From an uncultured Candidatus Saccharibacteria bacterium (GTDB lineage: Bacteria > Patescibacteriota > Minisyncoccia > 2-02-FULL-40-12): a stretch of DNA of 64,000 nt. Every line of letters starts with the position of its first letter. The stretch's first letter is position 1. The stretch lies in assembly GCA_964368135.1 (NCBI GenBank), contig CAYIZI010000002.1:16241-80240 (forward strand), written 5' to 3'. The notes beneath the pieces were generated by a model. The model worked only from the letters and a program-made list of their open reading frames with translations. It was not told the DNA's origin and made no database searches. This document shows, piece by piece, positions 1,957-46,088 of this stretch. The translations under genes and the position numbers were made by a program.

Positions 1957-2835
1957 TTACTTTTTATGCAACACCATCAAAATAGGACTGGCTACGAATA
2001 TAGATGAATAAGCCCCAGAAGCGATTCCGATAATTAAAGCTAAAGAAAAATTTTTCAAAGTCGGACCGCCGAAAATGTAAATCGCAATTACGGCAAAAAG
2101 AGTAGTTAAGGTCGTATTTATAGAACGGACTAAGGTTTGTTTAATACTCCGATGAACTGTTTCGTTAAAATTCCCTGAAGGATTTTTAAAAACATTCTCT
2201 CTGATTCTATCATAAACCACCACCGTATCATTGATTGAATAACCCAAAATGGCCAGGGCCGCGGCAATCATTGGCGCGTCAATCTGAACCCCCTTGAATA
2301 GACCGAGTAAAACAAAAACTCCGATCGGTATTAATAAGTCGTGGATTAAAGCGATAACTGCACCCAAGGCCAGAACAAAAGGACTTATCACCCCGCCGAT
2401 TTTTCTAAAAACAACGGCTAAGTAAGCTGAAATTAAGAGCAAAGCCGCTACTATCGCAATAATGCTTTTTCTTTTTAGTTCCGCGCCGATAGTTAAACCG
2501 ATTGAATCAAACCGTTTTTCCTCAAGCTCGCCCAATTGATTTAAACCATTTAAAACTTCCTGATGTTTTTCTTCCGAAATCTCCGGCATCCTGATTAACA
2601 ATCCTTTCTCACCTGCCTGTGAAATTGCCGCATTTGTTATTCCTTCTTTTTCTAAAATCTCTCTTATCCTCCCTAATTCGTAATTCGTAATTCGTAATTC
2701 ACTAAATTCTGCTTCTAACAACGCTCCACCAGTGAAATCAATCCCTAAATTCAAGCCGTAAATCAAAAACACCGCCAGAGAAGCGAGCATCAAAATAACC
2801 GAGATTGAAAAGAAGATTTTGTAGAGAGTCAGCAT
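1957..2835 (-). CDS. secF: protein translocase subunit SecF
   Basis: 292 aa. Has an N-terminal TM segment, a periplasmic domain, and the C-terminal six-TM SecD/SecF/RND-like bundle (GLNLGIDFTGG...). Size fits SecF rather than SecD. Contains copy 2 of the (AATTACG)3 repeat encoding ELRITNYEL. Confidence 0.85.
   Translation of the reverse strand: MLTLYKIFFSISVILMLASLAVFLIYGLNLGIDFTGGALLEAEFSELRITNYELGRIREILEKEGITNAAISQAGEKGLLIRMPEISEEKHQEVLNGLNQLGELEEKRFDSIGLTIGAELKRKSIIAIVAALLLISAYLAVVFRKIGGVISPFVLALGAVIALIHDLLIPIGVFVLLGLFKGVQIDAPMIAAALAILGYSINDTVVVYDRIRENVFKNPSGNFNETVHRSIKQTLVRSINTTLTTLFAVIAIYIFGGPTLKNFSLALIIGIASGAYSSIFVASPILMVLHKK
2675..2699 (-). repeat. heptanucleotide microsatellite (AATTACG)3AATT, copy 2 (inside secF, sense orientation)
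   Basis: The + strand reads AATTCGTAATTCGTAATTCGTAATT, which is AATTACGAATTACGAATTACGAATT on the secF sense strand. Confidence 0.9.
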
Positions 2836-2902
2836 AAAGTAATTCTATCATATAAAATTTTGCCGCCGACATCCATACTGAACGCCGGCGGCAACGAAAG
2901 TG

Positions 2903-3688
2903 CTAAACCTTGCTGTTTTTCGGCTGATACCAGAACAAACCTCCTTCTGTGGTCACTGTGAAATCACCGAAGAGATGAGGATACCGTTTGGTGACGATTT
3001 CTCCCACCTTACCGAAAACGAGACGAATTTCTTCTTCGGCGGTCGGGTGAGTCCGCATTTCCAGAATCCATCGAATGGTCCGCGGATTGGCTGACCAGCC
3101 GATGGTCGTAGCCAAACCGATTGGAGCGATTCGGCGCATCGCCGAGGTGATGACCTTCTTAACATGAAAAGGAACTCCCGAATCGTCAAGGCGGAAAAGT
3201 TCGGCAAGCTTGATCTGAAGTCCCTCCAAATGACGGAATGTCTCGCCGAAAACCTCAACAGCCTGCTCGTTTTCACGAATGACCGTCGGCAGCCACTGAC
3301 CAAGATCTTCGAGCCGCACAAACCGGAGGGACTCCTGGGAAATGGCTACGCCGGCACGATGCCGTACGAGTTCGTGAGTGAACACCCGCGAAACGTCGAC
3401 AAAAACAAAGTTCATCACCGGATGCTCGATGACCGAACCGTGCTTCACGTTCAAAATGTTCCCAAGGTAGTCGCTGTTGTGCTCACGAATCTTGGTGACG
3501 TTCCGGTTCATTCCAGGCTGGAAACTCCGATAACATAACCTGCCCATAACCTCCACCAGTTTTTCGGAGTCGGTCGGGGCATCGGAAACCCAATCTGGGA
3601 TGCCAAGATAATCGAGATAGGCCCAAAGTCCTTCTTCGACAATCCTGGTTTCGCCGACAAGGAAAACTTGCGGTTCGACTTTATGCAT
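2903..3688 (-). CDS. thyX: FAD-dependent thymidylate synthase ThyX
   Basis: Contains the ThyX signature ELVRHRAGVAISQESLR (RHR-X7-8-S motif); length about 260 aa. The start is chosen at the internal ATG at 3688, which follows a GGGGAGG Shine-Dalgarno at 5-nt spacing. The track ORF extends to 3745. High GC (>55%) unlike the flanks. Confidence 0.8.
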   Translation of the reverse strand: MHKVEPQVFLVGETRIVEEGLWAYLDYLGIPDWVSDAPTDSEKLVEVMGRLCYRSFQPGMNRNVTKIREHNSDYLGNILNVKHGSVIEHPVMNFVFVDVSRVFTHELVRHRAGVAISQESLRFVRLEDLGQWLPTVIRENEQAVEVFGETFRHLEGLQIKLAELFRLDDSGVPFHVKKVITSAMRRIAPIGLATTIGWSANPRTIRWILEMRTHPTAEEEIRLVFGKVGEIVTKRYPHLFGDFTVTTEGGLFWYQPKNSKV

Positions 3689-3863
3689 TGTCGCCTCCCC
3701 GATTTTTTTTGAGCGTAACGCAGTGGTACCATCCACCGTCCGCACCCTTTTTCAGTTCGACTTTTGCTGTCACTTCCTCTACGAGTTGGTTGCCATCGTA
3801 AATGATAACCCTGGCAGGATGATGAGAAGTGCCTACTTCTTGTTCAAGTTCAACCTTTACCAT
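3681..3863 (-). CDS. small hypothetical protein (60 aa), translationally coupled to thyX
   Basis: Starts MVKVELEQE..., preceded by a GGAGGG Shine-Dalgarno. Its stop overlaps the thyX start (ATGCATAA, 8-nt overlap). Same high-GC composition as thyX. Confidence 0.4.
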   Translation of the reverse strand: MVKVELEQEVGTSHHPARVIIYDGNQLVEEVTAKVELKKGADGGWYHCVTLKKNRGGDNA

Positions 3864-3904
3864 AAACCCTCCTGGTTTTTTTGATATCATTAATCTTATG
3901 AAAA

Positions 3905-3933
3905 AGAAAGGGCGGCGCATTGCGCCACCCGAT
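3905..3933 (-). terminator. putative GC-rich hairpin between dcd and the small ORF (attenuator/terminator candidate)
   Basis: GGGCGGCGC-ATT-GCGCCACCC inverted repeat (9-bp stem, one mismatch), followed on the minus strand by TTTCTTTTTC. Confidence 0.35.
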
Positions 3934-3944
3934 AGCTCACCTCT

Positions 3945-4496
3945 TCACAGAGTCTTCTGCCCCTGGAAGCGGACCCCCTGGAGTTTATCGTAGGTACGTT
4001 CGCACTCGCCATCGAGTTCCTCAAATGACAAATGAACCATGCCCATGTCGCCATAGATTCGTATTGGGACTGGGCTGGAGTTGGCTATATGGATGCGGAG
4101 CCGACCCTCCCAGCCAGGACTGATGCTCGAGATGTTGAGGCCGATGCCGACGCTGGAGTAAACAGTTTTCCCCACGCCGTGGGCAACGCAGTTCGGCGGA
4201 ATCCGAAAATACTCCAGAGTCATCGCCTCCGCAAAACCTCGCGGAGGGATGTCGTAGTACGGAACCGCTGACTTCTCAAAGTAAAACTCGTGGTCTAAGT
4301 TTAGGGGATCAAGCGTCTTGCCAGCGGCAACGGCCCAATCAAAGACCAAGATGCGCGGATCAAGCCGGGCGTCGTAGCCGGCTGGCTGAAGACCATAGGA
4401 AATGATTCCGTCTCCGGCCACACGCTCTGAAAACGGCGCAATCATCCAGTGTTCCAAAGCCATTTTCCTAATCCACCAATCGGGTTTTGATGCCAT
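3945..4496 (-). CDS. dcd: dCTP deaminase (dUTPase-fold)
   Basis: 183 aa. Has SYGLQPAGYDARL and GWEGRLRIHIANSSPVPIRIYGDMGMVHLSF, characteristic of the dCTP deaminase/dUTPase beta-barrel family. A GGGAGGTGA Shine-Dalgarno lies 4 nt before the ATG. High GC. Confidence 0.7.
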   Translation of the reverse strand: MASKPDWWIRKMALEHWMIAPFSERVAGDGIISYGLQPAGYDARLDPRILVFDWAVAAGKTLDPLNLDHEFYFEKSAVPYYDIPPRGFAEAMTLEYFRIPPNCVAHGVGKTVYSSVGIGLNISSISPGWEGRLRIHIANSSPVPIRIYGDMGMVHLSFEELDGECERTYDKLQGVRFQGQKTL

Positions 4497-8645: not shown

Positions 8646-10370
8646 TTACTGAATTAATTCCTGAATCTTTGCTCTGGTTTTCGCACCCACATACCCGATT
8701 TGCGGAAAAATTCCATACTTTTGCTGAAATCTTATGACCGCGCTTCTGGTAAAAGGGCCAAAATAACCAGTCACCCGGGCTTCCGGATAAACACCCTGGC
8801 TGATTAAAAACTCCTGAAGCCAGCTTACATCATTCCCCCTTAAACCGACAAATAAGTCTCGGGGCAGGGAAGGCTGCATTGGCGGCTGGCTTATTTGCTG
8901 GCCCTGCAAACGAAGCAGCTCCTCCTGCAAACTTCTTATTTGATCTAAAATCACCTGAATTGATTGACCGGCTAAATTAAGCAGGGTCGGTGTTGGCACC
9001 GGAGTGACTATATTTTCCGGAACTTCAGAAACAATTTGAGCTTGAATAGTAAAAGCCGCAACCGGATCATTGTCAGTAAAATCAGATGTTTTTGATTGAT
9101 TAGCTGGAATTACAACCACTTTATAAACATCTGAACCAAAACCTTTAATAAAATTAACCCCGCTACCCCCGCTTAAACTCATAAAACCAATCTCTTTCTG
9201 ACCGTTAACATAAAAAACAATATAAGGAATTAAAAACTTTGAACCAGTCGGACCGCTGAAATATAGTTTTAAATTCCCTTCAAGGCCGATTGGGGTGGTA
9301 AACTCATACCACACCGGCTGCCAGTCTTTAACCGAATTTGAAAGAGATAAGTTACTGCCCAGCCCGGAAGTTGAACTGCTTTGAGTTGACGAAATCTTAA
9401 AGTCTTTAAGATGAGCAGTTTTATAGGCAAATTTCCCTGAAGCTACTGAACTGTCATTTAAAATATTAGCCATGGTCCAATTGGTAAATACGTCTGAAAA
9501 GATTTCACTAAAACCGTTTAATCTTAAAGTTTCATTTATAGATTCAATGCCGATTTTTGAACTTCTCAAAGAGTCAATTAGGATCTTATCGCCATAATGA
9601 TCGGCTAAATAGTAAGCGAAAAGAGTGATTACCCCGTAATCGGGTGATAAATTTTTCCATTCGGCCAAGGGCTCGGAAGGGCTTTGACTAAAAGCAAAAA
9701 CTCGCCGCCTTAAGTTTGAATTATTATAATCGTCGTCGTAACCAACGATCTTGATAGAATATTCGGAACGCAACTCATTTAACCAGGTGTCTTCAGTCGC
9801 CTTTCTTAAAAACTCCTTCTGGTTAAAACCTATTAGGTGCTGGAATTCGTGAGCCAAAAATATCTTAGCTTTTCCACCGACAACCGAATCAGCGCTTACA
9901 AAAAACATTTCTCTTTCATTGGAGTTCTGAACTTCTGTTTTTTTGTAAAGATGGCTGGTATCAAAATATCCGCCGGCTGGATCTTTAAGTTTGGTAAATA
10001 AAATTATAATTTTAGGGTCGTTGTCAATTCCAGGATTTGGCTCCAGGCCCCAGAATGCCCTTTCAATCGGATAAATTCGGTTATCAAATTCCTGGGCTAA
10101 TTCATCTAATTTTGTTAAAAATAAATTTCTTTCCGGCTCTGAAATTCCGGCCCAGTAGTCATCGGATACATATAAGTAAGCGGTGACTGAAATTTTCCTT
10201 AAAGTGGCGGAAACTTTATCTCGGCCAAGATACTCAAACTTAGGGTCGATATTAAACTGAACTGTTTGGCCAATGACATCAGCGGAAACGACATTAAAAA
10301 TCAAAAAATAAAAACTGGATAAAAAAACGAGCAGAAATAAAAAAAGTTTTACTTTATTAAAACTTCTCAT
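8646..10370 (-). CDS. secreted putative zinc metallopeptidase (HExxH) with C-terminal peptidoglycan-binding domain
   Basis: Has an N-terminal signal/TM segment (KLFLFLLVFLSSFYFLIF), an HEFQH motif, and a C-terminal PG_binding_1-like repeat (LQEFLISQGVYPEARVTGYFGPFTRSAVIRFQQKYGI). Confidence 0.5.
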   Translation of the reverse strand: MRSFNKVKLFLFLLVFLSSFYFLIFNVVSADVIGQTVQFNIDPKFEYLGRDKVSATLRKISVTAYLYVSDDYWAGISEPERNLFLTKLDELAQEFDNRIYPIERAFWGLEPNPGIDNDPKIIILFTKLKDPAGGYFDTSHLYKKTEVQNSNEREMFFVSADSVVGGKAKIFLAHEFQHLIGFNQKEFLRKATEDTWLNELRSEYSIKIVGYDDDYNNSNLRRRVFAFSQSPSEPLAEWKNLSPDYGVITLFAYYLADHYGDKILIDSLRSSKIGIESINETLRLNGFSEIFSDVFTNWTMANILNDSSVASGKFAYKTAHLKDFKISSTQSSSTSGLGSNLSLSNSVKDWQPVWYEFTTPIGLEGNLKLYFSGPTGSKFLIPYIVFYVNGQKEIGFMSLSGGSGVNFIKGFGSDVYKVVVIPANQSKTSDFTDNDPVAAFTIQAQIVSEVPENIVTPVPTPTLLNLAGQSIQVILDQIRSLQEELLRLQGQQISQPPMQPSLPRDLFVGLRGNDVSWLQEFLISQGVYPEARVTGYFGPFTRSAVIRFQQKYGIFPQIGYVGAKTRAKIQELIQ

Positions 10371-10396: not shown

Positions 10397-12643
10397 TCAG
10401 CGAAGTGAGTTTATGAAATCCTGGGCTTCTTTGGTGTAGTTCGGGTCAATTTTTGCCGCCATTTGAGCGGCTTGAATGGCCTTACTTATCTCCCCTGTTT
10501 CTTTATAGGCCACTGCTAAAGAAGCAAAGTATTGAGGATTTTTTGGATTAAGTTTGACTAAAGCCTCATAAATTTCGGCGACTTTTTGGAAATTTCGCAT
10601 TCTCAAATAAATTTCGGCCACTCTCAAAGCATCTACTTCATTACTTTTATACTCGTAGCCGGACTTCTCAATGATCTCAGCGCCTTTCTGAAGATCGCCA
10701 GCCTGGGCGGTGGTAATGCCAAGATACCAGTGAGAAAGCTTGACCTCTGGATTTAACTCAACCACTTTTTCAAACCATTCAATCGCTGTTTTGTAGTCTT
10801 TTTTATTAAGGTAAACCTGAGCAACTTCATAATAAGTTCGGACAAAGGTTGGTGAAATTTCAAGAGCTTTAAGGCTGTTTTCTAAAGCCAGGTCATTAAA
10901 AGAAGAATTGGGGTCATTTTTGCCAAGGACAATGTAAGCCCGGCTGATATAAAGGTAAGGCAGATAATCCTGTGGTGATTCTTCAACATTTTTTTGGACA
11001 TTTTGGACGGCCACTAATAATCTTTCTGCTGTTTTTTGATCCACGCCAGTTTTTGAGGTAAGTTCCAGAATGTATTGGGCATAGCGGTGGCGGATTTCAT
11101 ACTTTCCAAAAGTGTCGTAGCTCATTGCTTTTTTGAATTTTTCAAAAGCCAAATCATGGTTGCCGCTCCAGGAAGCGATAATTGCTCTGGTGGTAGCATA
11201 GTTGGCTTTGGCTGGCACGACTTCAAAGAAATAAATTGAGAAAACTGCGATAATGACCAAGACCATGCCTGCGAAATTAGCCATTAAGTCTCTTTTTGGC
11301 TGAAGATTTTGAAGCTGCTGGTTTAAACTTTCTACCCTTAGCTGATTAATTAATCCAAGGATGATGAAAAACATTATAAAGTTGGCCGAGGTATCAAAAA
11401 TAAAGGAATTGTGAATCATATAGGCGACCAAGGTGGCAATCAAGCCGGCCTTTAATATTTTTTCTTCAGGATTTGAGTTCAGCCGTCTTAAATCTTGAAA
11501 GGCCCGATAGTAAATCAAAAGATAAGATAAAAAGCCGACCAAGCCCATAGTGAAAAGAACTTCAAGAAATTGATTGTGAGCCCGGTCAAATAAAGTTTCA
11601 GAACCTATTCCCCTAAAGAACTTGGGATTAAAGTGTTTTGAAAAAGGAATATTAAACATTTCCGGGCCCCAGCCCAAAAATATGGTTTTTAATGAATCGT
11701 TCCAGCCATTAAAACCAGCCTGCCAAGCCCAGGCTCGGGTCTGAACCGTATAGGCCGTAGGTGAAATGTCTGAATAGCGGGCCAAGTATTGATTCTCTCT
11801 CACAAAATCAGCCTTGCGCAGAGAGTACAAAGTTCCGGCAACAATAATAACCAGGATTGAAAAATAGATGGTATATCTTTTAACTTTAGGCGACCCAAAA
11901 CCAGCCGAGTATAAAAAACCAAATAAGATTACGCCGACAACCACGCCAAGCACCGAACCCCTGACTCCGGTCAGTAAAATCGCCAAAGCATCTATCAGAA
12001 AAACTGAACCGTAGAAAAATTTTTGGTTGTAAGAATTGCCGGGCTTAAAAAAGAGCATCAAAGCCAAAAAGGCATTAATTATAATGTAACCGGCAAAAAG
12101 AGCCGGGTTGCCAATGGTCCCGAAAATTTTTGCCCGGCCGCCAGAACCAATCACCCAGCTTAAATCAGTTTTTTGCAAAAACCCGTAAAAGGCCGAAAGC
12201 AAACTGACAAATAAAGATAGTTTAATAAAAGTAAGCCATTCTTCTTTTTTCCTTAAAACTCCAGTGGCAATAGCGAAGAAACCCCAGAAGTGCAGAAAAC
12301 TCAACCAGCCGCCCATTCGCTCTAAACTGCCAAAAAAGCTCTGATAAGTATTGGTGCTGGTAAAAGTGACCAAACCAAAAGCGGCTGTGAAAATCGTTAT
12401 CGCCCAAAAAAGAGGCGTTCGGGGAGGCGTAAATCTATAACCGTATCTGATTAACAAAATTATGTAAAAAACCGCCAGAATCTCAACCAAGGAACGAAAA
12501 ACAATAATCTTGCCAAAGTGAAAGGGCGAGATATACTGACTGAAAATAATTAGAGGGATAAAAGCAACAAAATAAATTCCATATTTCAGGAATTTTAGCA
12601 GGGCCGGCACCGCTGTTCTGGTATTGCTTTTTTGGTTTGACAT
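10397..12643 (-). CDS. O-antigen ligase (Wzy_C) family membrane protein fused to C-terminal TPR repeats
   Basis: About 12 TM helices with a Wzy_C-like loop (LTGVRGSVLGVVVG). The C-terminal ~300 aa form TPR-like repeats (AIEWFEKVVELNPEVKLSHWYLG...). Confidence 0.7.
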   Translation of the reverse strand: MSNQKSNTRTAVPALLKFLKYGIYFVAFIPLIIFSQYISPFHFGKIIVFRSLVEILAVFYIILLIRYGYRFTPPRTPLFWAITIFTAAFGLVTFTSTNTYQSFFGSLERMGGWLSFLHFWGFFAIATGVLRKKEEWLTFIKLSLFVSLLSAFYGFLQKTDLSWVIGSGGRAKIFGTIGNPALFAGYIIINAFLALMLFFKPGNSYNQKFFYGSVFLIDALAILLTGVRGSVLGVVVGVILFGFLYSAGFGSPKVKRYTIYFSILVIIVAGTLYSLRKADFVRENQYLARYSDISPTAYTVQTRAWAWQAGFNGWNDSLKTIFLGWGPEMFNIPFSKHFNPKFFRGIGSETLFDRAHNQFLEVLFTMGLVGFLSYLLIYYRAFQDLRRLNSNPEEKILKAGLIATLVAYMIHNSFIFDTSANFIMFFIILGLINQLRVESLNQQLQNLQPKRDLMANFAGMVLVIIAVFSIYFFEVVPAKANYATTRAIIASWSGNHDLAFEKFKKAMSYDTFGKYEIRHRYAQYILELTSKTGVDQKTAERLLVAVQNVQKNVEESPQDYLPYLYISRAYIVLGKNDPNSSFNDLALENSLKALEISPTFVRTYYEVAQVYLNKKDYKTAIEWFEKVVELNPEVKLSHWYLGITTAQAGDLQKGAEIIEKSGYEYKSNEVDALRVAEIYLRMRNFQKVAEIYEALVKLNPKNPQYFASLAVAYKETGEISKAIQAAQMAAKIDPNYTKEAQDFINSLR

Positions 12644-12676: not shown

Positions 12677-14044
12677 ATGAAACGACTGTCCTTATTTCTG
12701 GGCGATATTGCGGTACTTTACGCCTCTTTATACTTAACTTTACTGGTCCGTTACGGACTTGATTTTAGCTCTCAACTTCCCCTCCACTTACTCCCTTTTT
12801 CTTTAGTTTTTATTTTATGGATTCTGGTTTTCTATATCGCCAATCTTTATGAACTGAATTTCGCCAAAAATTCGCCCGAATTTTACTCTTCCTTATTTAA
12901 GTCAATTACTGTCTCGGCAATTATCTCGGTTCTATTCTTTTATTTGATGCCTTTTGTAATTGAAACGGTTCAAATCGAGCCGAGAAGAAATCTTTTAATT
13001 TACATCGCCGTCTTTACCGGTTTGGTCTCGTTGTGGCGCTATCTTTATAACCGACTATTAGGCAAAACCTTTAAAAATAATACTATAGTTGTCGGCTTCA
13101 ATCAAATTGCTTTTGATTTAGCCAAGTTTTTAAATAAAAATCCGCAATATGGCTACAATTTAAAATACGCCCTTGACGTTTCCGAACAGGCCGCTTTCTC
13201 TTTTGAAAATGTTGATTTCAGGCAAGTCCGCGGCGCTAAAGATATTGAAAAGATTTTGGAGACCAATCATATCAACACGATTATTTTAAGCCCCGAGGCC
13301 TATCGCCTGCCCGATATTATTGACGTTTTTTATAAAGCCAGCAAAAGAAACGTCCAGTTTACAAACCTGGCCAGTGCCTATGAAAGAATCCTGAAAAAAA
13401 TCCCGCTTGAATCGGTGAATCAGCTTTGGTTTTTAGAAAATATCTCCCGCGGAGAAAAAAGACTTTATGAATTTTTGAAACGAGCCCTTGATATGTTACT
13501 GGCTATAATCGGCCTTGCTGTTTTAATCGTCTTATTTCCATTTGTCGCCCTGGCCATAAAATGGGGAACCGAAGGACCTATATTCTATAAACAAATCAGA
13601 ATCGGCAAGGGAGGAAAAACTTTTGAGGTCATAAAGTTCAGAACAATGATTAAAGATTCAGAAAAGTACGGCCCGGTCTGGGCAACCAAAAAAGATCTCC
13701 GAGTCACAACGATTGGGGGCCTTTTAAGAAAGACCCGCTTAGACGAACTGCCGCAAGTAATCAATATCCTAAAAGGAGAAATGTCAGTGGTTGGTCCAAG
13801 AGCTGAAAGACCAGAATTTGTTCAGAAATTAAAAAAAGAAATTCCTTTTTATGAAGAAAGGCTTTTAACAAGGCCTGGGCTTACCGGCTGGGCCCAGATA
13901 AATTTCGGAAAAGATCTGGATTCATCAGATACCAAAGAAAAACTTCAATATGATTTGTATTACATCAAGAACCGCTCACTCACGATTGACTTGGCCGTAA
14001 TTTTAAAAACGATCAAGACGGTTCTCTCGGCCACAGGCTGGTAA
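12677..14044 (+). CDS. polyprenyl-phosphate hexose-1-phosphate transferase (WbaP/CpsE-type initiating sugar transferase)
   Basis: Has an N-terminal TM region, then the bacterial sugar transferase domain with the hallmark KGEMSVVGPRAERPEF. Confidence 0.8.
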   Translation: MKRLSLFLGDIAVLYASLYLTLLVRYGLDFSSQLPLHLLPFSLVFILWILVFYIANLYELNFAKNSPEFYSSLFKSITVSAIISVLFFYLMPFVIETVQIEPRRNLLIYIAVFTGLVSLWRYLYNRLLGKTFKNNTIVVGFNQIAFDLAKFLNKNPQYGYNLKYALDVSEQAAFSFENVDFRQVRGAKDIEKILETNHINTIILSPEAYRLPDIIDVFYKASKRNVQFTNLASAYERILKKIPLESVNQLWFLENISRGEKRLYEFLKRALDMLLAIIGLAVLIVLFPFVALAIKWGTEGPIFYKQIRIGKGGKTFEVIKFRTMIKDSEKYGPVWATKKDLRVTTIGGLLRKTRLDELPQVINILKGEMSVVGPRAERPEFVQKLKKEIPFYEERLLTRPGLTGWAQINFGKDLDSSDTKEKLQYDLYYIKNRSLTIDLAVILKTIKTVLSATGW

Positions 14045-14353: not shown

Positions 14354-15382
14354 TTAAGCCAAGTCCCGTTTCTTTTTCCTAAGTTTTTCTCTTATCGGGA
14401 TTTCGGAATCAAGAACTGTTTTCACGGCATTGCCAAAAGCTAATTCCATCTCTCTAACTTCTCTGATAAGCTCGGCGAGCTCGTGCGGCTCAAGACTGGC
14501 GGCCTGGTCAGTGCCAAACATATTTTTATCCAAAGTAATATGCCGTTCGATTAAATGAGCGCCGATGGTAGCTGCAGCCAACGATGGCGCAATTCCTTTT
14601 TCATGGCCGCTATATCCTACCGGCATTCCGGGAAATTCCCGCCTTAACTTATCAATCATTTTCAGATTAAGCTCTTCTTCTTTGGCCGGGTAAGTTGAAA
14701 CAGTATGTAAAAGAATCAAATTATCAGTGCCTAAAATTCTGACTGCATGTTTAATTTCATCCATTGTGCTCATGCCGGTAGATAAAACAACTGGCCGACC
14801 CTTTTCTTTTATTTTTTCTAATAACTCATTATGGGTAAGAGAGGCGGAAGCAACTTTATAGCAAGGGAGGTTAAACCCTTCCAGAAAATCAACGCTCTCT
14901 AAATCCCAAGGCGAAGCAAACCAAAAGATTCCTTTAGTATTGCAGTAGCGGTCAATCTCTTTGTACTCGTCTTTTGTAAATTCCAAAGCCCACTTCAAAT
15001 CGCCGTTGGTTGAATCTTTAAAATCAGATTTTTTAAGACGCTCAACCGACTCTTTCGGTAGTACTCCCCTTTTGACGGCGTTTTCCAAAACCGCTCTGTC
15101 AACCTGCCGCGGCTTAGCCAATTCCTCGGCTGAATAAACCGCCGGTACCGTTCGTTTTTGAAACTTTACGGCCTGGGCTCCGGCTTCAACCGCCGCATCA
15201 ATCAGTTTCTTGGCAATCTCCAAACTGCCGTTATGATTTATCCCGATTTCAGCCACAAAAAAACAAGGCTGTTTTTTACCTACAGCAATATTGCCAATAT
15301 GGATATCGTGAGTATCTAAAGATGAATTACCAACTATAGTCCTGGCAAATCTTGCTATTGGAGAAAAAAATGCTTTAAACAT
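14354..15382 (-). CDS. N-acylneuraminate-9-phosphate/nonulosonic acid synthase family (NeuB/PseI/LegI-like)
   Basis: NeuB TIM-barrel motif FFVAEIGINHNGSLEIAKKLIDAAVEAGAQAVKFQ; length 342 aa, consistent with a C-terminal SAF domain. Confidence 0.75.
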   Translation of the reverse strand: MFKAFFSPIARFARTIVGNSSLDTHDIHIGNIAVGKKQPCFFVAEIGINHNGSLEIAKKLIDAAVEAGAQAVKFQKRTVPAVYSAEELAKPRQVDRAVLENAVKRGVLPKESVERLKKSDFKDSTNGDLKWALEFTKDEYKEIDRYCNTKGIFWFASPWDLESVDFLEGFNLPCYKVASASLTHNELLEKIKEKGRPVVLSTGMSTMDEIKHAVRILGTDNLILLHTVSTYPAKEEELNLKMIDKLRREFPGMPVGYSGHEKGIAPSLAAATIGAHLIERHITLDKNMFGTDQAASLEPHELAELIREVREMELAFGNAVKTVLDSEIPIREKLRKKKRDLA

Positions 15383-15457: not shown

Positions 15458-16345
15458 ATGAAAGAAAATTTTAGAATTGGCTTCATCTGCATCGGTCCAG
15501 AAAGAAGTGGGACAACCTGGCTTTATCAATGTTTAAAGGAGCATCCTGAAATCTGCGTTTCCGAGCCAAAAGAAGTCAACTTTTTTAATTCCACTCAAAG
15601 TTTCTGGCGGAAAGATCTTATCGGCAAAAGCAATTACGAGAAAGGTTTGGATTGGTACAAAAAACATTTCAATCATTGTGGACCTGGCAAAAAAATTATC
15701 GGAGAATTTACCCCGATTTACCTACATTCTCCAGAGGTCCCGGAAAGAATCCACAAACATTTTCCGGATACGAGATTAATTTTAATTTTAAGAAATCCTA
15801 TTGAACGTCTTTACTCACACTATATGTACACCAAACTAAAAGGATTTTATGAATTGCCGTCTTTTGAAGAAGTTATTGAAAAAGAAAGAGGTTTTGTTGA
15901 AGAAAGCTTATACAATAAACATCTCCAAAATTATCTAAAGTACTTCCCGCGAGAACGTCTTTTGATAATGATTTATGAAGATATAGAAAAAAATCCCGGG
16001 GCTTTTGTTAAAGAAGTGTTTAGATTTTTAGAGATAGACGAAAACTTTGTACCGCCATCAGTAAATAAAACCATCAACCCAGCCGGAACAGTAATGGTAA
16101 GAAATAAAATCTTATCTATAAAAGATTTCGTTAAAAAAATCCCAGGCGGGAAACTTATAATTCAGCTTTTCAAAAAAACTTCTTTTTATAAAAAATTAGT
16201 TGATTCGTTAGCCACCAAAACCGGCACGGTCAAAGCCGACTACGGCAAAATCAACCCAGAAACAAAAAAACGGCTCGCCGAATTTTACAAAAAAGATATT
16301 GAAAACTTAGAAAAATTCCTTGGCCGAGATTTAAGTTGGAAATGA
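15458..16345 (+). CDS. sulfotransferase family protein
   Basis: Has the PAPS 5'-phosphosulfate-binding motif at the N-terminus (IGPERSGTTWLYQCL) and a 3'-phosphate-binding region (LILRNPIERLYSHY). Confidence 0.7.
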   Translation: MKENFRIGFICIGPERSGTTWLYQCLKEHPEICVSEPKEVNFFNSTQSFWRKDLIGKSNYEKGLDWYKKHFNHCGPGKKIIGEFTPIYLHSPEVPERIHKHFPDTRLILILRNPIERLYSHYMYTKLKGFYELPSFEEVIEKERGFVEESLYNKHLQNYLKYFPRERLLIMIYEDIEKNPGAFVKEVFRFLEIDENFVPPSVNKTINPAGTVMVRNKILSIKDFVKKIPGGKLIIQLFKKTSFYKKLVDSLATKTGTVKADYGKINPETKKRLAEFYKKDIENLEKFLGRDLSWK

Positions 16346-21850: not shown

Positions 21851-23620
21851 ATGGCGAAGCTAAACGTAATCCAGCCCCATATCCACCCTTCAGAGGTGGT
21901 AAGGGGCATAACGGCAAGAGATCTTGAGGGTCTCAACGTTGTTTTCATCAATATGCCGCTTCGGGAAACGGCGCTACCAAACACCACACCCGAGGGTCCG
22001 CTATTAATGGCGACAAACCTGATTCGGAACTATGGGGTTAGTGCTTCAGTAATTGACCTCAACGCTTACCGGATTAAAGACGAGCTGGCTCAAAAACGCG
22101 GACTCCCGCGAGGCCGCCACCTGACCGAAGAAGAGGCCTTTGGTAAAATCCAACGCCATTTCCTCAAATTTGGCGAACCAGACCTTGTTTGCCTTTCAGG
22201 AATGATCACCACTCTGAAGTGGCAAAAAGCAGTGGCGGGAATGGTCCGCCGGCTGGTACCTAACACTATGCTCGTTTCTGGCGGGGGCCTGGCTACTGAA
22301 TTAAAAGTGGGACTGTTTAACTACACCCCTGAACTCGATGGAGTGGCCCACTCCGAAGGAGACGATGTCATCGTCAAAATCTGCTACGACGCGGCGGTTA
22401 TTCGGCGCCACGGCCGGCAACATGCTCTCAACTCGGGCAAGCTCGAACCCTATTTACTGCAGGACGGCTCCGGCCGTCTGATGTACGAAGGCGATCGGCC
22501 CGATGATTTGGACCGATTCCCATGGGTTGACCTTGAGCTTTTGCGCGAAGATGTTGACGGGGTCAAAATCCTTGAGCAATATCTTCAAGCCGAAGCTTGG
22601 GGACTTAGCGCAAACAACAGCTCGGCGGCACCGTTTGTAACCGCGCCGAAAACCACTTCGGTTTCTTCCCGCGGCTGTCCCTATGGCTGCAAATACTGCT
22701 ATCGGGGCGCCCAAGGAGAACGCAAGTGGCACGTGAGGTCGGCCCGCCATCTGGTTGAGGAAATGAAAGAACACATGGCAAAGTACGGCATAGCTTTCAA
22801 GAGCTGGCCGGACGACAACTTTGCGGTGACATTCAAAAGGATTAAGGAACTCCGGGATATCATTGTCGCAGAAGGCATCAAGATTCCCTGGGGAACCCAC
22901 ACTCGCCTCGACGAAGCCGGTGGCTTTGTTCCTAACTCACGTCAACCCCATCACGAGAGAAACTTCTTTACCGACTATATCTTTGAGGATCCGCTCCGGA
23001 TCAAGCTAATGGCTGAAGCCAACTGTAAGTACGTCGGCTTTGGACCAGAAAGCGCTCACCCAGACACCCTTGAAGAACTCGGCAAAGGAGGCTTCACTCT
23101 CAAGGCAGGTTTGATCCCAGTTGGAGTCAACGGCCATACCTACTACTTCCCCAAAGCCATGATCTATGGAACCAAGCACACCATGGAAGCGGGGATTCAC
23201 GCCAACATGACCTGGATCAAGTTTAATCCGGGAGAAACGCTGGAACGGCTCAAGCAGACAGTTGCCTTCATCAAATGGCAGATTGATTACTACGCAACCT
23301 TCGGAATACCGGAAGAAGCGGTGAATAAAAACATGTTCACTCTTACCTGGTATCCTGGGACGGAACTAATCAATCACCCTAAGGTGAGGTTAGAACTTTC
23401 GCGCGTCTTCGGTCTGAATTTCCAAAGGATCAACGGCAAGTGGGACCCTGTCTGCGATGAGGCGTTCTACCGGTATTGCCTGGAACTAGACGACGCCACC
23501 AAGCTCCTTCACGGCCCGGACGGCGAACCGCTGAACTTCAGCGAAATGCCAAACGACTTGGCCCTACAAATCAACGAGTATGTCAGCTCCGGCCAAACTC
23601 TTCGTATCCTGGACATATAA
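21851..23620 (+). CDS. B12-binding domain radical SAM protein (class B radical SAM-like)
   Basis: N-terminal cobalamin-binding-like Rossmann segment, then the radical SAM CxxxCxxC motif (CPYGCKYC). 589 aa. About 52-55% GC in about 33% GC surroundings. Strong AAGGAGG Shine-Dalgarno. Confidence 0.7.
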   Translation: MAKLNVIQPHIHPSEVVRGITARDLEGLNVVFINMPLRETALPNTTPEGPLLMATNLIRNYGVSASVIDLNAYRIKDELAQKRGLPRGRHLTEEEAFGKIQRHFLKFGEPDLVCLSGMITTLKWQKAVAGMVRRLVPNTMLVSGGGLATELKVGLFNYTPELDGVAHSEGDDVIVKICYDAAVIRRHGRQHALNSGKLEPYLLQDGSGRLMYEGDRPDDLDRFPWVDLELLREDVDGVKILEQYLQAEAWGLSANNSSAAPFVTAPKTTSVSSRGCPYGCKYCYRGAQGERKWHVRSARHLVEEMKEHMAKYGIAFKSWPDDNFAVTFKRIKELRDIIVAEGIKIPWGTHTRLDEAGGFVPNSRQPHHERNFFTDYIFEDPLRIKLMAEANCKYVGFGPESAHPDTLEELGKGGFTLKAGLIPVGVNGHTYYFPKAMIYGTKHTMEAGIHANMTWIKFNPGETLERLKQTVAFIKWQIDYYATFGIPEEAVNKNMFTLTWYPGTELINHPKVRLELSRVFGLNFQRINGKWDPVCDEAFYRYCLELDDATKLLHGPDGEPLNFSEMPNDLALQINEYVSSGQTLRILDI

Positions 23621-23644: not shown

Positions 23645-23692
23645 GAAAAAAGCCCGACAGGTTCATCTTGTCGGGCTTCGCTCTTTATTTTT
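23645..23692. terminator. bidirectional rho-independent terminator between the convergent radical SAM and cytidylyltransferase genes
   Basis: AAAAAA-GCCCGACAGG-ttcatc-TTGTCGGGC-TTcgcTCTTTATTTTT: a hairpin with an A-tract upstream and a T-tract downstream. Confidence 0.75.
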
Positions 23693-24398
23693 CGCCCCCT
23701 CTCCTCTTCAAAATCTTGCCAATCAGCCAAAACTGGTATTCGCTGTCAACTTGGAGAGAGTCTTCCTCGGTCATCTGGACAATCGCCATTTTCCCGCCCC
23801 AGCGATGGCCGATTTTATGAAATAAATCTGTCTTAGTTATATAAAAAGCTCCGTTCTCATGATAAACTTTTGGTAAATCCTGCCTGACCACTCTTTTCAT
23901 CACCGGAACTTCCGGTTCAAAAGCAACCTCTCTGCCTGACTCATCAACCTTCGGCCGCCATTTCCACTCATAGGTTTCAGGCAAAAAAGCAGTGATGCAA
24001 GAATCAAAACCTTGATTCTTTACCCTATTCACGCACTCCTTTATAATTTCTGATTTTAAAAGCGGCGAAGTCGGCTGAATGCAGGAAACGAAATCAGGCA
24101 CGTAATTTTCTTTTTCTCTTAAATAATCCAAAGCATGTTTAATTACCGGCTCAAGAGTAATCTTATCGCCAGCCAGTTCTTTTGGCCGGTCAACCACCTC
24201 GGCCCCGAATTTCTTAGCCACTCCCGCAATCTCGGCATCGTCAGTTGAAACAATCACCCTATCCACTACACCAGAATTCAAAACCGCTTCAATAGTATGA
24301 GCAACTAAGGGCTTCTCGTTTAACAATCTTATATTTTTTCGGGGCACTCCTTTGGAACCGCCCCGCGCCGGAATTATAGTAATAATTTTTGGCTTCAT
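23685..24398 (-). CDS. acylneuraminate/nonulosonate cytidylyltransferase family (CMP-NeuAc/CMP-Kdo synthetase-like)
   Basis: N-terminal IIPARGGSKGVPRKN motif; 237 aa. Confidence 0.75.
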   Translation of the reverse strand: MKPKIITIIPARGGSKGVPRKNIRLLNEKPLVAHTIEAVLNSGVVDRVIVSTDDAEIAGVAKKFGAEVVDRPKELAGDKITLEPVIKHALDYLREKENYVPDFVSCIQPTSPLLKSEIIKECVNRVKNQGFDSCITAFLPETYEWKWRPKVDESGREVAFEPEVPVMKRVVRQDLPKVYHENGAFYITKTDLFHKIGHRWGGKMAIVQMTEEDSLQVDSEYQFWLIGKILKRRGGEK

Positions 24399-24403
24399 AA
24401 TTT

Positions 24404-25021
24404 TTATACTTTGTGGCTAAGGCGGAAAAATAAGTAGTTAGAGATTATATGGACCAATAAAAGATGCAGCGACTCTACCGGCCCATAGTGGCCCTTTGGC
24501 GAAGTTGCGGTAATTACATGAGCGCAGCAGTTTTTTGCCTCACCGCCGTCAAATCCAAGAACCCCGACAGTGTTTCCGCCTTTAGAATTAACATATTCTA
24601 TAGCTCTAATCAAGTTTGGCGAATCTCCGCTTCCTGAAAAAACAATAAGAACATCGCCGGGTTTATAAAGATTCCTCAACTGCCCGACAAAAACTTTCTC
24701 ATATCCCTCGTCATTGCCTAAAGCGCTTAGGTAAGGAACGCTGTCGCTTAAACTTAGGGTTCTAAACGGCTTGTCTTCCCCGGCCCCGGCGCAAAGAGCC
24801 AAGTCTTCGACAAAATGAGAAGCATTAGCCGCGCTTCCGCCGTTTCCCACTACAAAAATCATTGAACCGCGCTCCCTTGCTTCTAAAAGAGTGTCAACTA
24901 ACTTTTCAACTGAGCCAATGTCAATCGATTTTGTTAAATCAAAAAAATGTTCGGTATATTTTTTGAAAAACTGATTGAACGATCCGTTTGATTCTTTAAA
25001 AAATTGTTCTATCTGTTTCAT
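24404..25021 (-). CDS. SIS-domain sugar-phosphate isomerase (GmhA-like sedoheptulose-7-phosphate isomerase)
   Basis: VVGNGGSAANASHFVEDL and SGSGDSPN motifs; 205 aa, single SIS domain. Confidence 0.65.
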   Translation of the reverse strand: MKQIEQFFKESNGSFNQFFKKYTEHFFDLTKSIDIGSVEKLVDTLLEARERGSMIFVVGNGGSAANASHFVEDLALCAGAGEDKPFRTLSLSDSVPYLSALGNDEGYEKVFVGQLRNLYKPGDVLIVFSGSGDSPNLIRAIEYVNSKGGNTVGVLGFDGGEAKNCCAHVITATSPKGHYGPVESLHLLLVHIISNYLFFRLSHKV

Positions 25022-28220: not shown

Positions 28221-29306
28221 TTAAAAAGGGCCTTTAAAATCTTTATCTGGCACATCAAGCGGTGTGATTCTATTTTTTTCTTCCTCTTTAATCAAAACTT
28301 CTAACTTTTTCCTGTTTCCGCCGACCATCTTAACAACTTTTCTGGCAATATCTATATACCTTGGATAATAATACTTTGCTAAGGCCGGCGTTGAGGGAGT
28401 CGGCAAATCAGGAGAAGTGATTCTTTGAGGATTGGTTAAAAGTTTAACCTTTTGATTTTCAGAAACAGCCGCAATAATCTCTGCGGCGGCGCCAAAACTT
28501 TTATAGCCAAGGTCAGCAACCAGTAACCTTTTTGTTTTAGATACAGAATCAAAAATAGTTTGTTCGTCTAATGGTTTTAGAGTTCTTACATCTATAATTT
28601 CCGGATTTATTCCCATTTTCTTTAATAAATTTGCGGCTTTAATGGATTCAATCGTCATATGGGAAGTTGAAACGATAGTGATCGCCTCCCCTTTTTTAAC
28701 GATGCTGGCTTTGCCAATAGGAACTTTATAATAACCGCTTGGAACTTGCCCAAAAGTATCATGAAGCCAGCGATGGTCAATATAAATAACTGGGTTATTG
28801 TCTTCAATCGCCGAAACCATTAAACCTTTGGCATCAGCCGGGGTTGACGGCATCACTACTTTCAAACCCGGAATATGGGCATAAACTGCCTGGAGGTTTT
28901 GAGAATGTTGAGCCCCCTGTCCCCAACCCATACCAATAGTCACCTTAATGACCAAAGGAACTGACTGCCTGCCGCCAAACATATAATGCCACTTAGCCGC
29001 ATTATTAATTACTTGTTCTAACGCAAGTAAGCTAAAATCAACTCTTTGATGAGTCAAAACGGGCCGCATCCCGCTAATCGCCGCTCCAATACAGACGCCG
29101 GTTATGCCATTTTCAGAAACCGGCATATCCATTACTCTATTTCCCCCATATTTTTTTTGAAGCCCCACTGTAGCACCAAAAATCCCTTTCGGATCAGGAA
29201 CACCTAAACCTATCACAAAAACCGATCTATCTTTTTTTAAAGATAGATCTAATGCCTCATTAATGGCTTGAACATAGGTTATATTATGCGCCGTAGAGCC
29301 CTTCAT
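28221..29306 (-). CDS. TPP-dependent 2-oxoacid dehydrogenase E1 beta subunit / transketolase C-terminal-like
   Basis: Transketolase pyrimidine-binding and C-terminal domains (MDMPVSENGITGVCIGAAISGMRP). The start is moved to the internal ATG (MKGST...). Confidence 0.6.
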   Translation of the reverse strand: MKGSTAHNITYVQAINEALDLSLKKDRSVFVIGLGVPDPKGIFGATVGLQKKYGGNRVMDMPVSENGITGVCIGAAISGMRPVLTHQRVDFSLLALEQVINNAAKWHYMFGGRQSVPLVIKVTIGMGWGQGAQHSQNLQAVYAHIPGLKVVMPSTPADAKGLMVSAIEDNNPVIYIDHRWLHDTFGQVPSGYYKVPIGKASIVKKGEAITIVSTSHMTIESIKAANLLKKMGINPEIIDVRTLKPLDEQTIFDSVSKTKRLLVADLGYKSFGAAAEIIAAVSENQKVKLLTNPQRITSPDLPTPSTPALAKYYYPRYIDIARKVVKMVGGNRKKLEVLIKEEEKNRITPLDVPDKDFKGPF

Positions 29307-30249
29307 ATAAATATTCCTTTGGTGGGAATTTGCTTTTTTTAGCAAAATCAAACGCCTCTTTTATCTTTTCTTCTACATCTTTTTTGATTTTATCCAACTC
29401 CTTTTGAGAAACTATCTTATTTTTAAGAAGGTGACCCTCAAAATGCCTAACCGGATCTTTTTTCTTCCATGCCTCCACTTCTTTCTTATCCCTATATCCT
29501 AAATGATCATCATAAAACGGACCGCAATGTTCACGCCACCGATAAGTTAAAAACTCCAAAAATACCGGGCCTTCCCCTTTTCTTATTTTCTTAACCGCCT
29601 CGGAAACAGTTTTATAAATATCTAAAACATTATTGCCGTCGTGCTGGGAAGCGGTTATGCCATGCCCTTCAACTAATTTATAAATGGGGCGATTTGGCTG
29701 TCTTTCTGATAAAGGGGTGTAAACCGAGAAAAAATTATTTTCGCAGACAAATAAAATCGGCAATTTTTTAAAAGCGGCGAAGTTTAAACTTTCATGAAAA
29801 ACTCCTTCTTCAGCCGTTCCATCGCCTATAAAAGCAACTGTAATTTTATTTTTACCTTTTAATTTATTAGCAAAAGCGGCGCCAACGGCGATGGGCATAC
29901 TATTTCCGACAATTGGAGTAGCTCCGCCAAAACCAGCCTCAAGATCAATTAAATGCTGGGAACCGCCTTTCCCTTTGGAACAACCTGTCTCTTTTCCGTA
30001 AATTTCGGCAATCATTTTATCTAAGTCTCCTCCTTTAGCCAGATAATGAGCATGGCAACGGTGAGTGCTGTAAACAATGTCATCTTTTTTTAAATTTTCG
30101 CAAACCCCGACTGCCACAGCTTCCTGACCAATAGATAAATGAACCGGACACCGCATTTCCTGATCCGGATATCTTTTAGCAATCTCTTCGTCAGTCAACC
30201 TGATTAAGAGAAGTTTTTGGTATAAAGATAAAAGTAGTTTTAAAGACAT
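29284..30249 (-). CDS. TPP-dependent dehydrogenase E1 alpha subunit-like
   Basis: E1-alpha signatures: CPVHLSIGQEAVAVG and the TPP-binding GDGTAEEG...N motif. Confidence 0.6.
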   Translation of the reverse strand: MSLKLLLSLYQKLLLIRLTDEEIAKRYPDQEMRCPVHLSIGQEAVAVGVCENLKKDDIVYSTHRCHAHYLAKGGDLDKMIAEIYGKETGCSKGKGGSQHLIDLEAGFGGATPIVGNSMPIAVGAAFANKLKGKNKITVAFIGDGTAEEGVFHESLNFAAFKKLPILFVCENNFFSVYTPLSERQPNRPIYKLVEGHGITASQHDGNNVLDIYKTVSEAVKKIRKGEGPVFLEFLTYRWREHCGPFYDDHLGYRDKKEVEAWKKKDPVRHFEGHLLKNKIVSQKELDKIKKDVEEKIKEAFDFAKKSKFPPKEYLYEGLYGA

Positions 30250-30253
30250 AAAA

Positions 30254-45191: not shown

Positions 45192-46088
45192 TTAACCGAA
45201 AATCTTTTTAAATTTTGATGAAATTTTTTGCCCCAGCAGTTTAAATAATCTGCTAAAACTTATATCTGACTGATAATGCCAGCCTGAAAACCATTCAGGC
45301 AACCCTTCTTCTTTTGCTTTATGAGTTGTATTAACGGCCAGAACCGCTTTGAATAATGCGTTATTGTGGCTGGCTGAGAAAGCCGATATATCCTTAGGTA
45401 AACAGTGCCCTCTAAATGATCTGCCATACCGGAGATAATTCCTGTTCTCAAACAGAAAATTTAAAATGTTATCGGGATTGACGCTGCTTTGTTGAACGGC
45501 ATTGCCAAACTCATTCACAAAAGCAATCCTGGTCGCATTCCATATATTTGACAGATATTTTATATAGGAAGCCTCTTCCGGTGTCCCTTCAAAAACTTTA
45601 TTGGCTTGGCCCTGCCATTTTTTCAGAAAACTCGGCTTCAATATGTTATTCCGCGCACCAATTGCAAGATAATATGGGTGGAAACATTCTTCCACGCCAT
45701 GTTTCTCATGTAAAAATTCCGGAACATAAAAATCAAAGTCAAGTTTTTGTAAATGCTTGGGTAAAACTGTGGAGCGTAAAATTATTCTGCCCTTAGCGCT
45801 TTTAACCGAGCCAAGAGCTTCTTTAATTAAAGAAATATCCTGATTACCTTTTTCATCAACCCGATCACCAACACAGACAAGATACCAAGTATTTTCACTA
45901 TCCTGCTCTAAAGCATTATTTAACGGCCTAATCTTTTCATAAGCCTTTTCGTAATTTGGATATCTCTTTTCTGGATTCACTATATCATAGTAAAAAACCG
46001 GATGACCCATCATCGTTAAAGCCAAAGCATTGGCCTGCCCGACCCAGCCATAACCAATAACCACAATTTTTTCTTTTGAGCCGGTCAT
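45192..46088 (-). CDS. nucleotide-sugar dehydrogenase family protein, short form lacking the C-terminal nucleotide-sugar-binding domain
   Basis: VIGYGWVGQANA (GxGxxG) and a catalytic Cys context GHCLPKD resembling UDP-glucose dehydrogenase GGSCFPKD. Only 298 aa. Confidence 0.45.
   Translation of the reverse strand: MTGSKEKIVVIGYGWVGQANALALTMMGHPVFYYDIVNPEKRYPNYEKAYEKIRPLNNALEQDSENTWYLVCVGDRVDEKGNQDISLIKEALGSVKSAKGRIILRSTVLPKHLQKLDFDFYVPEFLHEKHGVEECFHPYYLAIGARNNILKPSFLKKWQGQANKVFEGTPEEASYIKYLSNIWNATRIAFVNEFGNAVQQSSVNPDNILNFLFENRNYLRYGRSFRGHCLPKDISAFSASHNNALFKAVLAVNTTHKAKEEGLPEWFSGWHYQSDISFSRLFKLLGQKISSKFKKIFG

Follow-up and report, generated by a model that had tools for sequence, protein, structure and literature searches.

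The surface-layer (S-layer) O-oligosaccharyltransferase (O-OTase) WsfB of Paenibacillus alvei carries a Wzy_C domain followed by C-terminal tetratricopeptide repeats (TPR), PglL is described likewise, and in Geobacillus stearothermophilus a separate TPR protein, WsaA, lies beside WsaB (PMC2943079). The same architecture is encoded twice in the DNA analysed here, a stretch of 64,000 nucleotides (the window) of contig CAYIZI010000002.1 from an uncultured Candidatus Saccharibacteria bacterium, a member of the Candidate Phyla Radiation (CPR). Two proteins, A and B, combine Wzy_C with a TPR array, and a third, C, contains Wzy_C only. We suggest, with a probability of roughly 0.45, that A, and probably B, are en-bloc ligases for glycans linked to undecaprenyl diphosphate (Und-PP), most likely protein O-OTases like WsfB. 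The contig is 97,952 bp long and comes from a 0.1-um filtrate of Hainich groundwater; the regions examined are the window and its flanks within the same contig.

Several other groups of enzymes have to be compared with these proteins. PglL and PglS have 13 transmembrane (TM) helices and a C-terminal periplasmic domain, proposed to recognise internal sequons (PMC12800693, PMC9829042); their donor specificity is relaxed and their genes are usually unlinked to an acceptor gene (PMC3643930, PMC12800693, PMC9829042). The ligase WaaL of Cupriavidus metallidurans (CmWaaL, PDB 7TPG/7TPJ) has 12 TM helices in about 400 residues and no TPR domain, and its acceptor is lipid A-core. In the monoderm Streptococcus pneumoniae, the Wzy_C protein TacL (397 aa, without a TPR ectodomain) is proposed as the enzyme that joins teichoic acid, which is an Und-PP-linked polymer, to a glycolipid, that is, to an acceptor other than lipopolysaccharide (LPS; PMC5727136). 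TfpW of Pseudomonas aeruginosa and the eukaryotic TMTC1-4 are polytopic transferases of lipid-linked sugars that have a non-cytoplasmic C-terminal TPR domain and act on proteins (bioRxiv 10.1101/2020.04.19.049825; PMC7801869); however, they have the glycosyltransferase C (GT-C) fold with a DDx motif, not Wzy_C, and use monosaccharide donors.

Architecture, active site and topology of the three proteins

An earlier note on this DNA had proposed two fusion proteins and a third Wzy_C protein as candidate protein-glycosylating oligosaccharyltransferases (OTases). The three open reading frames (ORFs) exist where it placed them, all on the minus strand:

10397-12643, minus strand: protein A, 748 aa, conserved core Wzy_C-TPR fusion, putative en-bloc glycan ligase / O-OTase
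54896-56953, minus strand: protein B, 685 aa, divergent paralogue in a low-GC island, with the architecture of A
56934-58211, minus strand: protein C, 425 aa, Wzy_C only, 12 TM helices, most likely the repeat-unit polymerase (Wzy) of the island

All three match Wzy_C (PF04932) above its gathering score of 31.7 bits, as the note had expected, with 57.4 bits for A (residues 214-375), 89.6 for B (200-357) and 53.6 for C (199-360). Multiple Pfam TPR families score above cutoff in the last ~250 residues of A and B and none does in C. The C-terminal TPR array is thus real; its length, put at about 300 aa in the note, is ~265 aa in A and ~240 aa in B. A and B are homologous end to end, with identities of 37% (E=1e-59) and 28% (E=1e-24) in the TM and TPR domains, respectively. 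The alignment of C to the A-family profile (hhalign probability 97.7%, E=2e-12) has 360 columns, which span the whole 12-TM core, and C stops where A and B run on. Searched alone against the PDB sequences, C has no match.

In the public gene call, B begins 45 codons further downstream and has 640 aa, without TM1 and the conserved motif PLI...S.F..GK. The long start is supported because the homology to A begins at residue 17 of the 685-aa form and spans TM1 and the conserved motifs. The overlap of C with B, already noticed earlier, is therefore real and measures 20 nt. Exact-sequence look-ups of B with the 685-aa form fail because the public call is 640 aa.

The catalytic residues proposed for this fold are R215/R288/H338 in E. 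coli WaaL and R224/R298/H349 in PglL (PMC3643930). In a direct alignment of B to CmWaaL (7TPG), R191, R265 and H313 are all matched, and the triad of A was assigned from this alignment together with the A/B/C alignment; the DRAHN region of A corresponds, via B, to EHAHN of CmWaaL. In total, 357 of 403 WaaL residues are aligned with A; the identity to WaaL is only 14-17%. The parts of the proteins are:

11309-12643, minus strand: A residues 1-445, 12-TM WaaL-like catalytic core (helices from AlphaFold2, AF2), the large outside loop being residues 275-357
11960-11962, minus strand: A Arg228 (motif GVRGS), counterpart of E. coli WaaL R215, CmWaaL R191 and PglL R224
11735-11737, minus strand: A Arg303 (motif QTRAWAW), counterpart of WaaL R288, CmWaaL R265 and PglL R298
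11573-11587, minus strand: A motif D353-R-A-H356-N357, His356 being the counterpart of the proposed catalytic His (WaaL H338, CmWaaL H313, PglL H349)
11204-11290, minus strand: A residues 452-480, extra 13th TM helix, by which the chain crosses from TM12's cytoplasmic end to the outer side (AF2 gives a continuous helix 452-492)
10400-11203, minus strand: A residues 481-748, extracytoplasmic TPR array
55724-56953, minus strand: B catalytic core, triad R215/R288/H338
55613-55708, minus strand: B TM13
54899-55612, minus strand: B TPR array
within 56934-58211, minus strand: C triad, retained as R214/R292/H342

Arg228 is invariant in alignment A1 and has a frequency of 0.99 among 125 family representatives of 30-58% identity. 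Arg303 is invariant as well, and the triad as a whole reaches 0.99-1.00 in the representatives, with 1.00 for H356 and 0.99 for the nearby D353. The outside-loop residues R109, N179, R228, R303, W307, G324, G326, D353, H356 and D417 are 96-100% conserved in the same set. By alignment, A and B are true members of the WaaL fold and have its catalytic Arg/Arg/His triad.

A positive-inside count for A gives 15 Lys/Arg in the short inside loops, three of them in the loop 435-453, versus 5 in the outside loops, and the catalytic loops and the TPR array are therefore placed outside. The TPR domain is predicted to face outward, beside the catalytic loops; a cytoplasmic TPR domain was rejected on this count and on the topology of WaaL. 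Both the WaaL-like core with Arg/Arg/His and the layout of 13 TM helices plus an ectodomain are common to A, B and PglL/PglS. However, the ectodomain of A and B is a long TPR array, and the proteins have 685-748 aa versus 550-620 aa. From WaaL sensu stricto they differ by the 13th TM helix and the TPR ectodomain of 240-265 aa; only C fits WaaL in size, and only C is near the size of TacL.

The Wzy_C-TPR family and the gene neighbourhood of A

A belongs to a very large family. Dozens of full-length relatives are found at 50-77% identity, and the closest are all from Patescibacteria metagenome-assembled genomes labelled Parcubacteria, Paceibacterota or Yanofskybacteria, some of them bins from the same aquifer. 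A scan of the GTDB species genomes with A gives 170 relatives, the best 80 of which are all from Patescibacteria and are orthologues at 40-77% identity. The membrane domain of A alone matches 7,919 representatives of 50%-identity clusters, 1,365 of them at E<=1e-30. Among the best 150 matches 149 were newly retrieved, and of these 128 are at least 650 aa long and 124 have a detectable homologue of the C-terminal domain of A, down to ~30% identity. The Wzy_C-TPR fusion is therefore old and stable, and the statement of the earlier note that this architecture recurs in CPR genomes holds on a massive scale. It also seems right to call it largely uncharacterised there. CPR members of the family are already labelled 'O-antigen ligase family protein' in databases, and the literature searched contains no discussion of these Wzy_C-TPR proteins in CPR and nothing pairing CPR or Saccharibacteria with 'O-antigen ligase'; the Lipocone paper treats both CPR and O-antigen ligase topics, never jointly.

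B and C behave differently from A. B has no close orthologue among 5.8 billion proteins, and after itself its best matches are A-type proteins at 33-37% identity. C finds only itself in the same set. The GC content is 40.4% in A, which is the background level, 34.6% in B and 34.7% in C. Both B and C lie in a low-GC block (37404-63880, 35.7%, versus ~43% in the housekeeping genes at 1-8.1 kb) which also contains Wzx and most of the glycosyltransferases and would fit a variable glycan island that is exchanged horizontally. A recent tandem duplication of A and B was considered and rejected, as their identity (37%) is no higher than that between B and the A-type proteins of other genomes and as the GC contents differ. 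The pair had been called duplicated; they are homologous paralogues, but distant ones with a different evolutionary behaviour, so the word says too much. Nor are the three proteins the equivalent candidates for which they had been taken: judged from these comparisons, A appears as a conserved core enzyme, B as a divergent island paralogue and C as an orphan, most likely a Wzy polymerase. Extra A-type copies are a recurrent feature of small CPR genomes. Two Patescibacteria genomes have two A-type genes each, L026/L035 (56% identity) and L027/L055 (44% within the pair), and most of these copies are found without the canonical neighbours described below.

Two genes flank A directly:

12677-14044, plus strand: initiating polyprenyl glycosylphosphotransferase (PGT; Bac_transf, WbaP/WcaJ-type), Pfam Bac_transf E=9.5e-65, TIGR03025 364.9 bits versus a cutoff of 295.6
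8646-10370, minus strand: secreted HExxH (M30/lugdulysin-like) metalloprotease with a C-terminal PG_binding_1 domain, directly downstream of A

The PGT gene is divergent from A with a gap of 33 nt. Downstream of A the order is the HExxH protein, HPF and SecA, and the same set recurs around A-type genes elsewhere. The HExxH protein matches lugdulysin (7BB8, E=1.3e-7) and NF045524 (E=3.3e-7) and is a distant relative of MXAN_6640-type metalloproteases; neighbours of 40-41% identity are present in loci L008 and L009, and the C-terminal domain varies among the homologues. Counted within 6 kb of the A-type gene at 80 loci, those of the best 80 of the 170 relatives in the GTDB species genomes (81 loci with the window), the neighbours are:

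PGT: 48 of 80 loci, directly adjacent in 31
HExxH protein: 40 of 80 loci, always downstream and on the same strand
HPF: 30 of 80 loci
SecA: 27 of 80 loci
Wzx homologue: 11 of 80 loci
NeuB homologue: 4 of 80 loci
C homologue: 1 of 80 loci

The divergent PGT/Wzy_C-TPR pair, followed downstream by HPF and SecA, is seen again for two family members on large contigs that were found as ~32% matches to B, and there the sugar genes alongside are entirely different. At one A-type locus the exporter is of ABC type and Wzx is absent from the range covered; the systems of the family include Wzx-type as well as ABC-type export. In 21 of the 41 loci with full flanks there are no other polytopic ORFs near the A-type gene. 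Because of the fold, the triad, the outward topology and this tight pairing with the initiating transferase, A and B very likely have polyprenyl-diphosphate-linked glycans as substrates, on the outer side of the membrane.

The glycan cluster and its flanks

The window from 12.7 kb onward is taken up by a single large surface-glycan region. The two fusions had been said to lie at its opposite ends. A does sit at the boundary with the housekeeping genes, but B is not at the far end, as it is followed by C, by five more glycosyltransferase genes and, past the window, by two GT-C-TPR genes. Besides about nine glycosyltransferase (GT4/GT2) genes, the cluster holds a DegT aminotransferase, several methyltransferases and the following genes:

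38617-39879, minus strand: Wzx-type flippase (Polysacc_synt, PF01943), multi-TM, the sole one in the window
14354-15382, 23685-24398 and 24404-25021, minus strand: NeuB, CTP_transf_3 cytidylyltransferase (CMP-sugar synthetase-type) and a SIS-domain protein
46085-47779, minus strand: fused ATP-sulfurylase/adenylylsulfate (APS) kinase, for synthesis of phosphoadenylylsulfate (PAPS)
15458-16345, plus strand: sulfotransferase
21851-23620 (plus strand), 28221-32056 (minus strand) and 35272-37353 (plus strand): radical-SAM enzyme, B12-binding radical-SAM enzyme, thiamine-diphosphate (TPP)-dependent enzyme and E1 alpha/beta-like transketolase-type subunits, amid sugar-nucleotide genes
47776-49449, minus strand: polytopic protein, 557 aa, no Pfam or NCBIfam match, 'IIDDELF' first-loop motif (GT-C-like)
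49446-50147, minus strand: GT2, 233 aa, overlapping the 557-aa protein and resembling polyprenyl-phosphate-hexose synthases (AglJ/PpgS/ArnC-like)
L004 937-2550 (537 aa) and 2540-4339 (599 aa), same contig just past window position 64000: two polytopic membrane proteins with C-terminal TPR

The NeuB, CTP_transf_3 and SIS set is likely a nonulosonic-acid (sialic/legionaminic-like) branch of the glycan. PAPS synthesis together with a sulfotransferase points to sulfation of a surface glycan in a CPR bacterium, and the radical-SAM and TPP enzymes hint at unusual C-branched or C-methylated sugars. By their sequence features, the 557-aa protein and its GT2 partner would suit a second route to extracytoplasmic glycosylation, of Gtr/PMT type. 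The two TPR proteins past the window have the N-terminal first-loop motifs 'YDDE' and 'WDDDE', which are typical of GT-C (PMT/TMTC-like), and one has a weak PMT match (PF02366, E=6.7e-4). The locus in total has four membrane-transferase-TPR fusions of two different folds.

Directly upstream of the two GT-C-TPR genes, L004 198-863 encodes a protein of 221 aa that has a hydrophobic segment at the N terminus and a tail rich in Ser/Thr/Pro (SIQTPLTSPTITPALSPTPTLKLTPKPASP). Low-complexity proteins of this kind occur nowhere else in the contig parts examined, and this one is a candidate O-glycosylation acceptor.

The organism had been taken to lack LPS. This agrees with a report of Parcubacteria without lipid A/LPS genes (PMC5220378) and with the window and the flanks examined, in which there are no lpx, kds or waa core genes; the agreement covers these parts of the contig.

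Ligase, polymerase and acceptor

Viewed as an O-OTase system, the locus would work as follows. The glycan would be built on undecaprenyl phosphate, started by the adjacent PGT (12677-14044), extended by the GT4/GT2 enzymes of the cluster and flipped by Wzx (38617-39879), and possibly polymerised by the orphan C. The 12-TM core of A or B would then hold the Und-PP-glycan via the conserved Arg pair and, with the conserved His as base, pass the glycan on to an acceptor hydroxyl on the membrane's outer face. The 13th TM helix would set the TPR array, of eight or so repeats, outside beside the catalytic loops, where it would most likely select or hold the acceptor. As lipid A-core is probably absent and as the architecture equals that of WsfB, the acceptor is most likely Ser/Thr/Tyr of secreted or surface proteins, and several paralogues per small genome suggest several acceptors. 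A pair of a pilin-specific and a general O-OTase is reported for Acinetobacter in a study listed by PMC12645811. TfpW and TMTC1-4, being TPR-fused enzymes of like design that glycosylate proteins, also favour a protein acceptor. Taken as an O-OTase, A would be the conserved, glycan-independent 'housekeeping' ligase of the lineage, and B is probably a copy carried by the variable island for a different glycan form or acceptor set.

The likeness to WsfB goes beyond the single proteins. Its host is a monoderm without LPS, as the CPR host probably is too, and by the published description of the architecture Wzy_C is followed by C-terminal TPR in one polypeptide, as in A and B. Its S-layer-glycan cluster has a Gal-1-P-type PGT first and a CDP-glycerol glycerophosphotransferase (PMC2943079), and the window has Bac_transf, Glyphos_transf and Wzy_C-TPR. 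However, the CPR proteins form a very large family of their own, with several paralogues per genome, and no S-layer gene is recognised in the regions examined.

That A is a ligase rather than a polymerase seems probable, by analogy with the evolution of WaaL/PglL and of Wzy enzymes in other bacteria. A is conserved and fixed in position while the donor-building genes vary, and C is an orphan, which would make A a donor-promiscuous ligase or OTase and C a glycan-specific Wzy. It could instead be argued that the Wzy_C-TPR proteins are themselves Wzy-type repeat-unit polymerases, or form a polymerase/co-polymerase pair with C, in which the TPR domain is a built-in chain-length regulator or export scaffold in place of Wzz. 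The Wzy_C family of Pfam includes polymerases as well as ligases (PMC4594306, PMC3643930), 7TPG was deposited as 'polysaccharide polymerase/ligase', the window contains no Wzz gene of the polysaccharide co-polymerase (PCP) type and no obvious Wzy candidate besides C when A and B are set aside, and the 20-nt overlap of B and C suggests co-translation of a complex. Against this, Wzy polymerases are glycan-specific, hypervariable and embedded in variable clusters. C shows this pattern and also fits by its Wzx/Wzy pathway context, its size of 425 aa and its place beside GT4 genes; B is intermediate, and A does not show it, as it is kept at 40-77% identity and in position across the 80 loci whatever the glycan genes, with a Wzx homologue within 6 kb at only 11 loci and with an ABC-type transporter and no Wzx in range at one. 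To our knowledge, Wzy enzymes lack TPR domains. We therefore regard a polymerase role as improbable for the fusions in general, and more plausible for B, which overlaps C, than for A.

A better competitor, though still an unlikely one, is a ligase like TacL or WaaL, with which A and/or B would move an Und-PP-polymer to a membrane glycolipid or another envelope glycan. The product would be a lipoglycan resembling lipoteichoic acid or a polymer linked to the wall, with the TPR domain binding polymer, peptidoglycan or a partner protein. The only solved relative, WaaL, is a sugar-acceptor ligase, TacL does this type of reaction in a monoderm according to the proposal cited above, and the conserved downstream neighbour of A has a peptidoglycan-binding domain. 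TPR domains are also known as polysaccharide-export scaffolds from work cited in PMC2943079 (its reference 99). However, TacL and WaaL have ~400 aa and neither a 13th TM helix nor a C-terminal ectodomain (PMC5727136), an extra outward domain marks the protein OTases of PglL/PglS/WsfB type (PMC9829042, PMC12800693, PMC2943079), and neither an LCP protein nor a glycolipid-anchor synthase is recognised in the window. A non-catalytic or unrelated role, for example as scaffold or transporter, is very improbable. Wzy_C proteins like IctB formerly carried the annotation of bicarbonate transporter, and the IctB family (TIGR00947) is the best NCBIfam match of the TM domain, but its 42.9-54.1 bits are about 7-fold below the cutoff of 366 (the other NCBIfam matches of A and B are generic TPR and sub-threshold). 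The near-invariant WaaL Arg/Arg/His and other outside-loop residues, and the tight linkage to the initiating phosphoglycosyl transferase, speak for an enzyme, and the IctB assignment was rejected.

Several points weigh against the O-OTase reading, in which the protein acceptor, a part that we infer, is the weakest link. O-OTases, WaaL ligases and Wzy polymerases are not separable by sequence alone (PMC3643930, PMC9829042), and WsfB is likened to A and B by the published description of its architecture. The flags of PglL/PglS-type O-OTases, PglL_A (PF15864) and Wzy_C_2 (PF11846), have no match at E<=0.1 in A, B or C, and the same holds for O-antigen_lig (PF13425), which the earlier note had named as a check. 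The cluster contains teichoic-acid-type genes, a TagF-like glycerophosphotransferase (Glyphos_transf) and a CTP_transf_like cytidylyltransferase, which fit a TacL-like lipoglycan pathway. The pilin-specific O-OTases (TfpO/PilO, TfpM, TfpW) are encoded beside their cognate type IV pilin gene, tfpW among them, and A-type genes are not: no ORF with a class-III signal peptide (GFTLIE-type) is present in the window or at the 80 family loci (81 loci, ~1.0 Mb). Of the TPR region, nothing but the structural Ala/Pro/Leu/Gly consensus is kept at depth in the 125 representatives, with no conserved ligand-binding surface evident. Many polar TPR residues are in common among the A orthologues of at least 50% identity, and on these alignments the TPR domain keeps a constant scaffold and has a surface that differs from lineage to lineage. 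Polysaccharide binding or a scaffold function is also possible for TPR domains. For the proposal of protein-glycosylating OTases this means that the WaaL fold and triad, the outward TPR domain and the precedent of WsfB stand in its favour, and that the PglL-specific domains and the pilin adjacency do not.

It can further be speculated that the Wzy_C-TPR family is the general surface-glycan ligase of the Paceibacteria/Parcubacteria-type CPR, although this wider proposal is doubtful. One conserved enzyme, paired with a PGT and near SecA, would attach whatever glycan the island makes onto emerging secreted or surface proteins. The outward TPR domain would be the acceptor selector, as an en-bloc counterpart of the eukaryotic TMTC/OGT logic, and extra paralogues like B would retarget glycans. 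If so, protein O-glycosylation would be a core, lineage-wide feature of the CPR envelope, and the family would be a new class of donor-promiscuous O-OTases for glycoengineering.

The Wzy_C-TPR architecture, and the idea that TPR aids the recognition of a protein acceptor, are already known from WsfB and PglL. New are how large and stable the CPR family is, that it is paired in a fixed manner with a PGT near SecA, and that the three proteins split into core, island and orphan. Because WsfB already has the architecture, the value lies in scope and testability and not in a new principle. CPR bacteria depend on surface contact with their hosts, and the construction of their cell envelope is largely unknown (PMC5220378). 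A conserved, very large family tied to the first enzyme of lipid-linked glycan synthesis is a testable handle on CPR surface glycosylation. If its members are lipoglycan ligases or polymerases instead, they would still carry out the terminal step of CPR surface polymer assembly. If they turn out to be protein O-OTases, en-bloc O-glycosylation would reach into a major uncultured radiation, bioconjugate engineering would gain new OTases, and it would be clear why tiny genomes keep glycan islands that are large and variable and, in the present case, apparently sulfated, nonulosonic-acid-containing and heavily modified.

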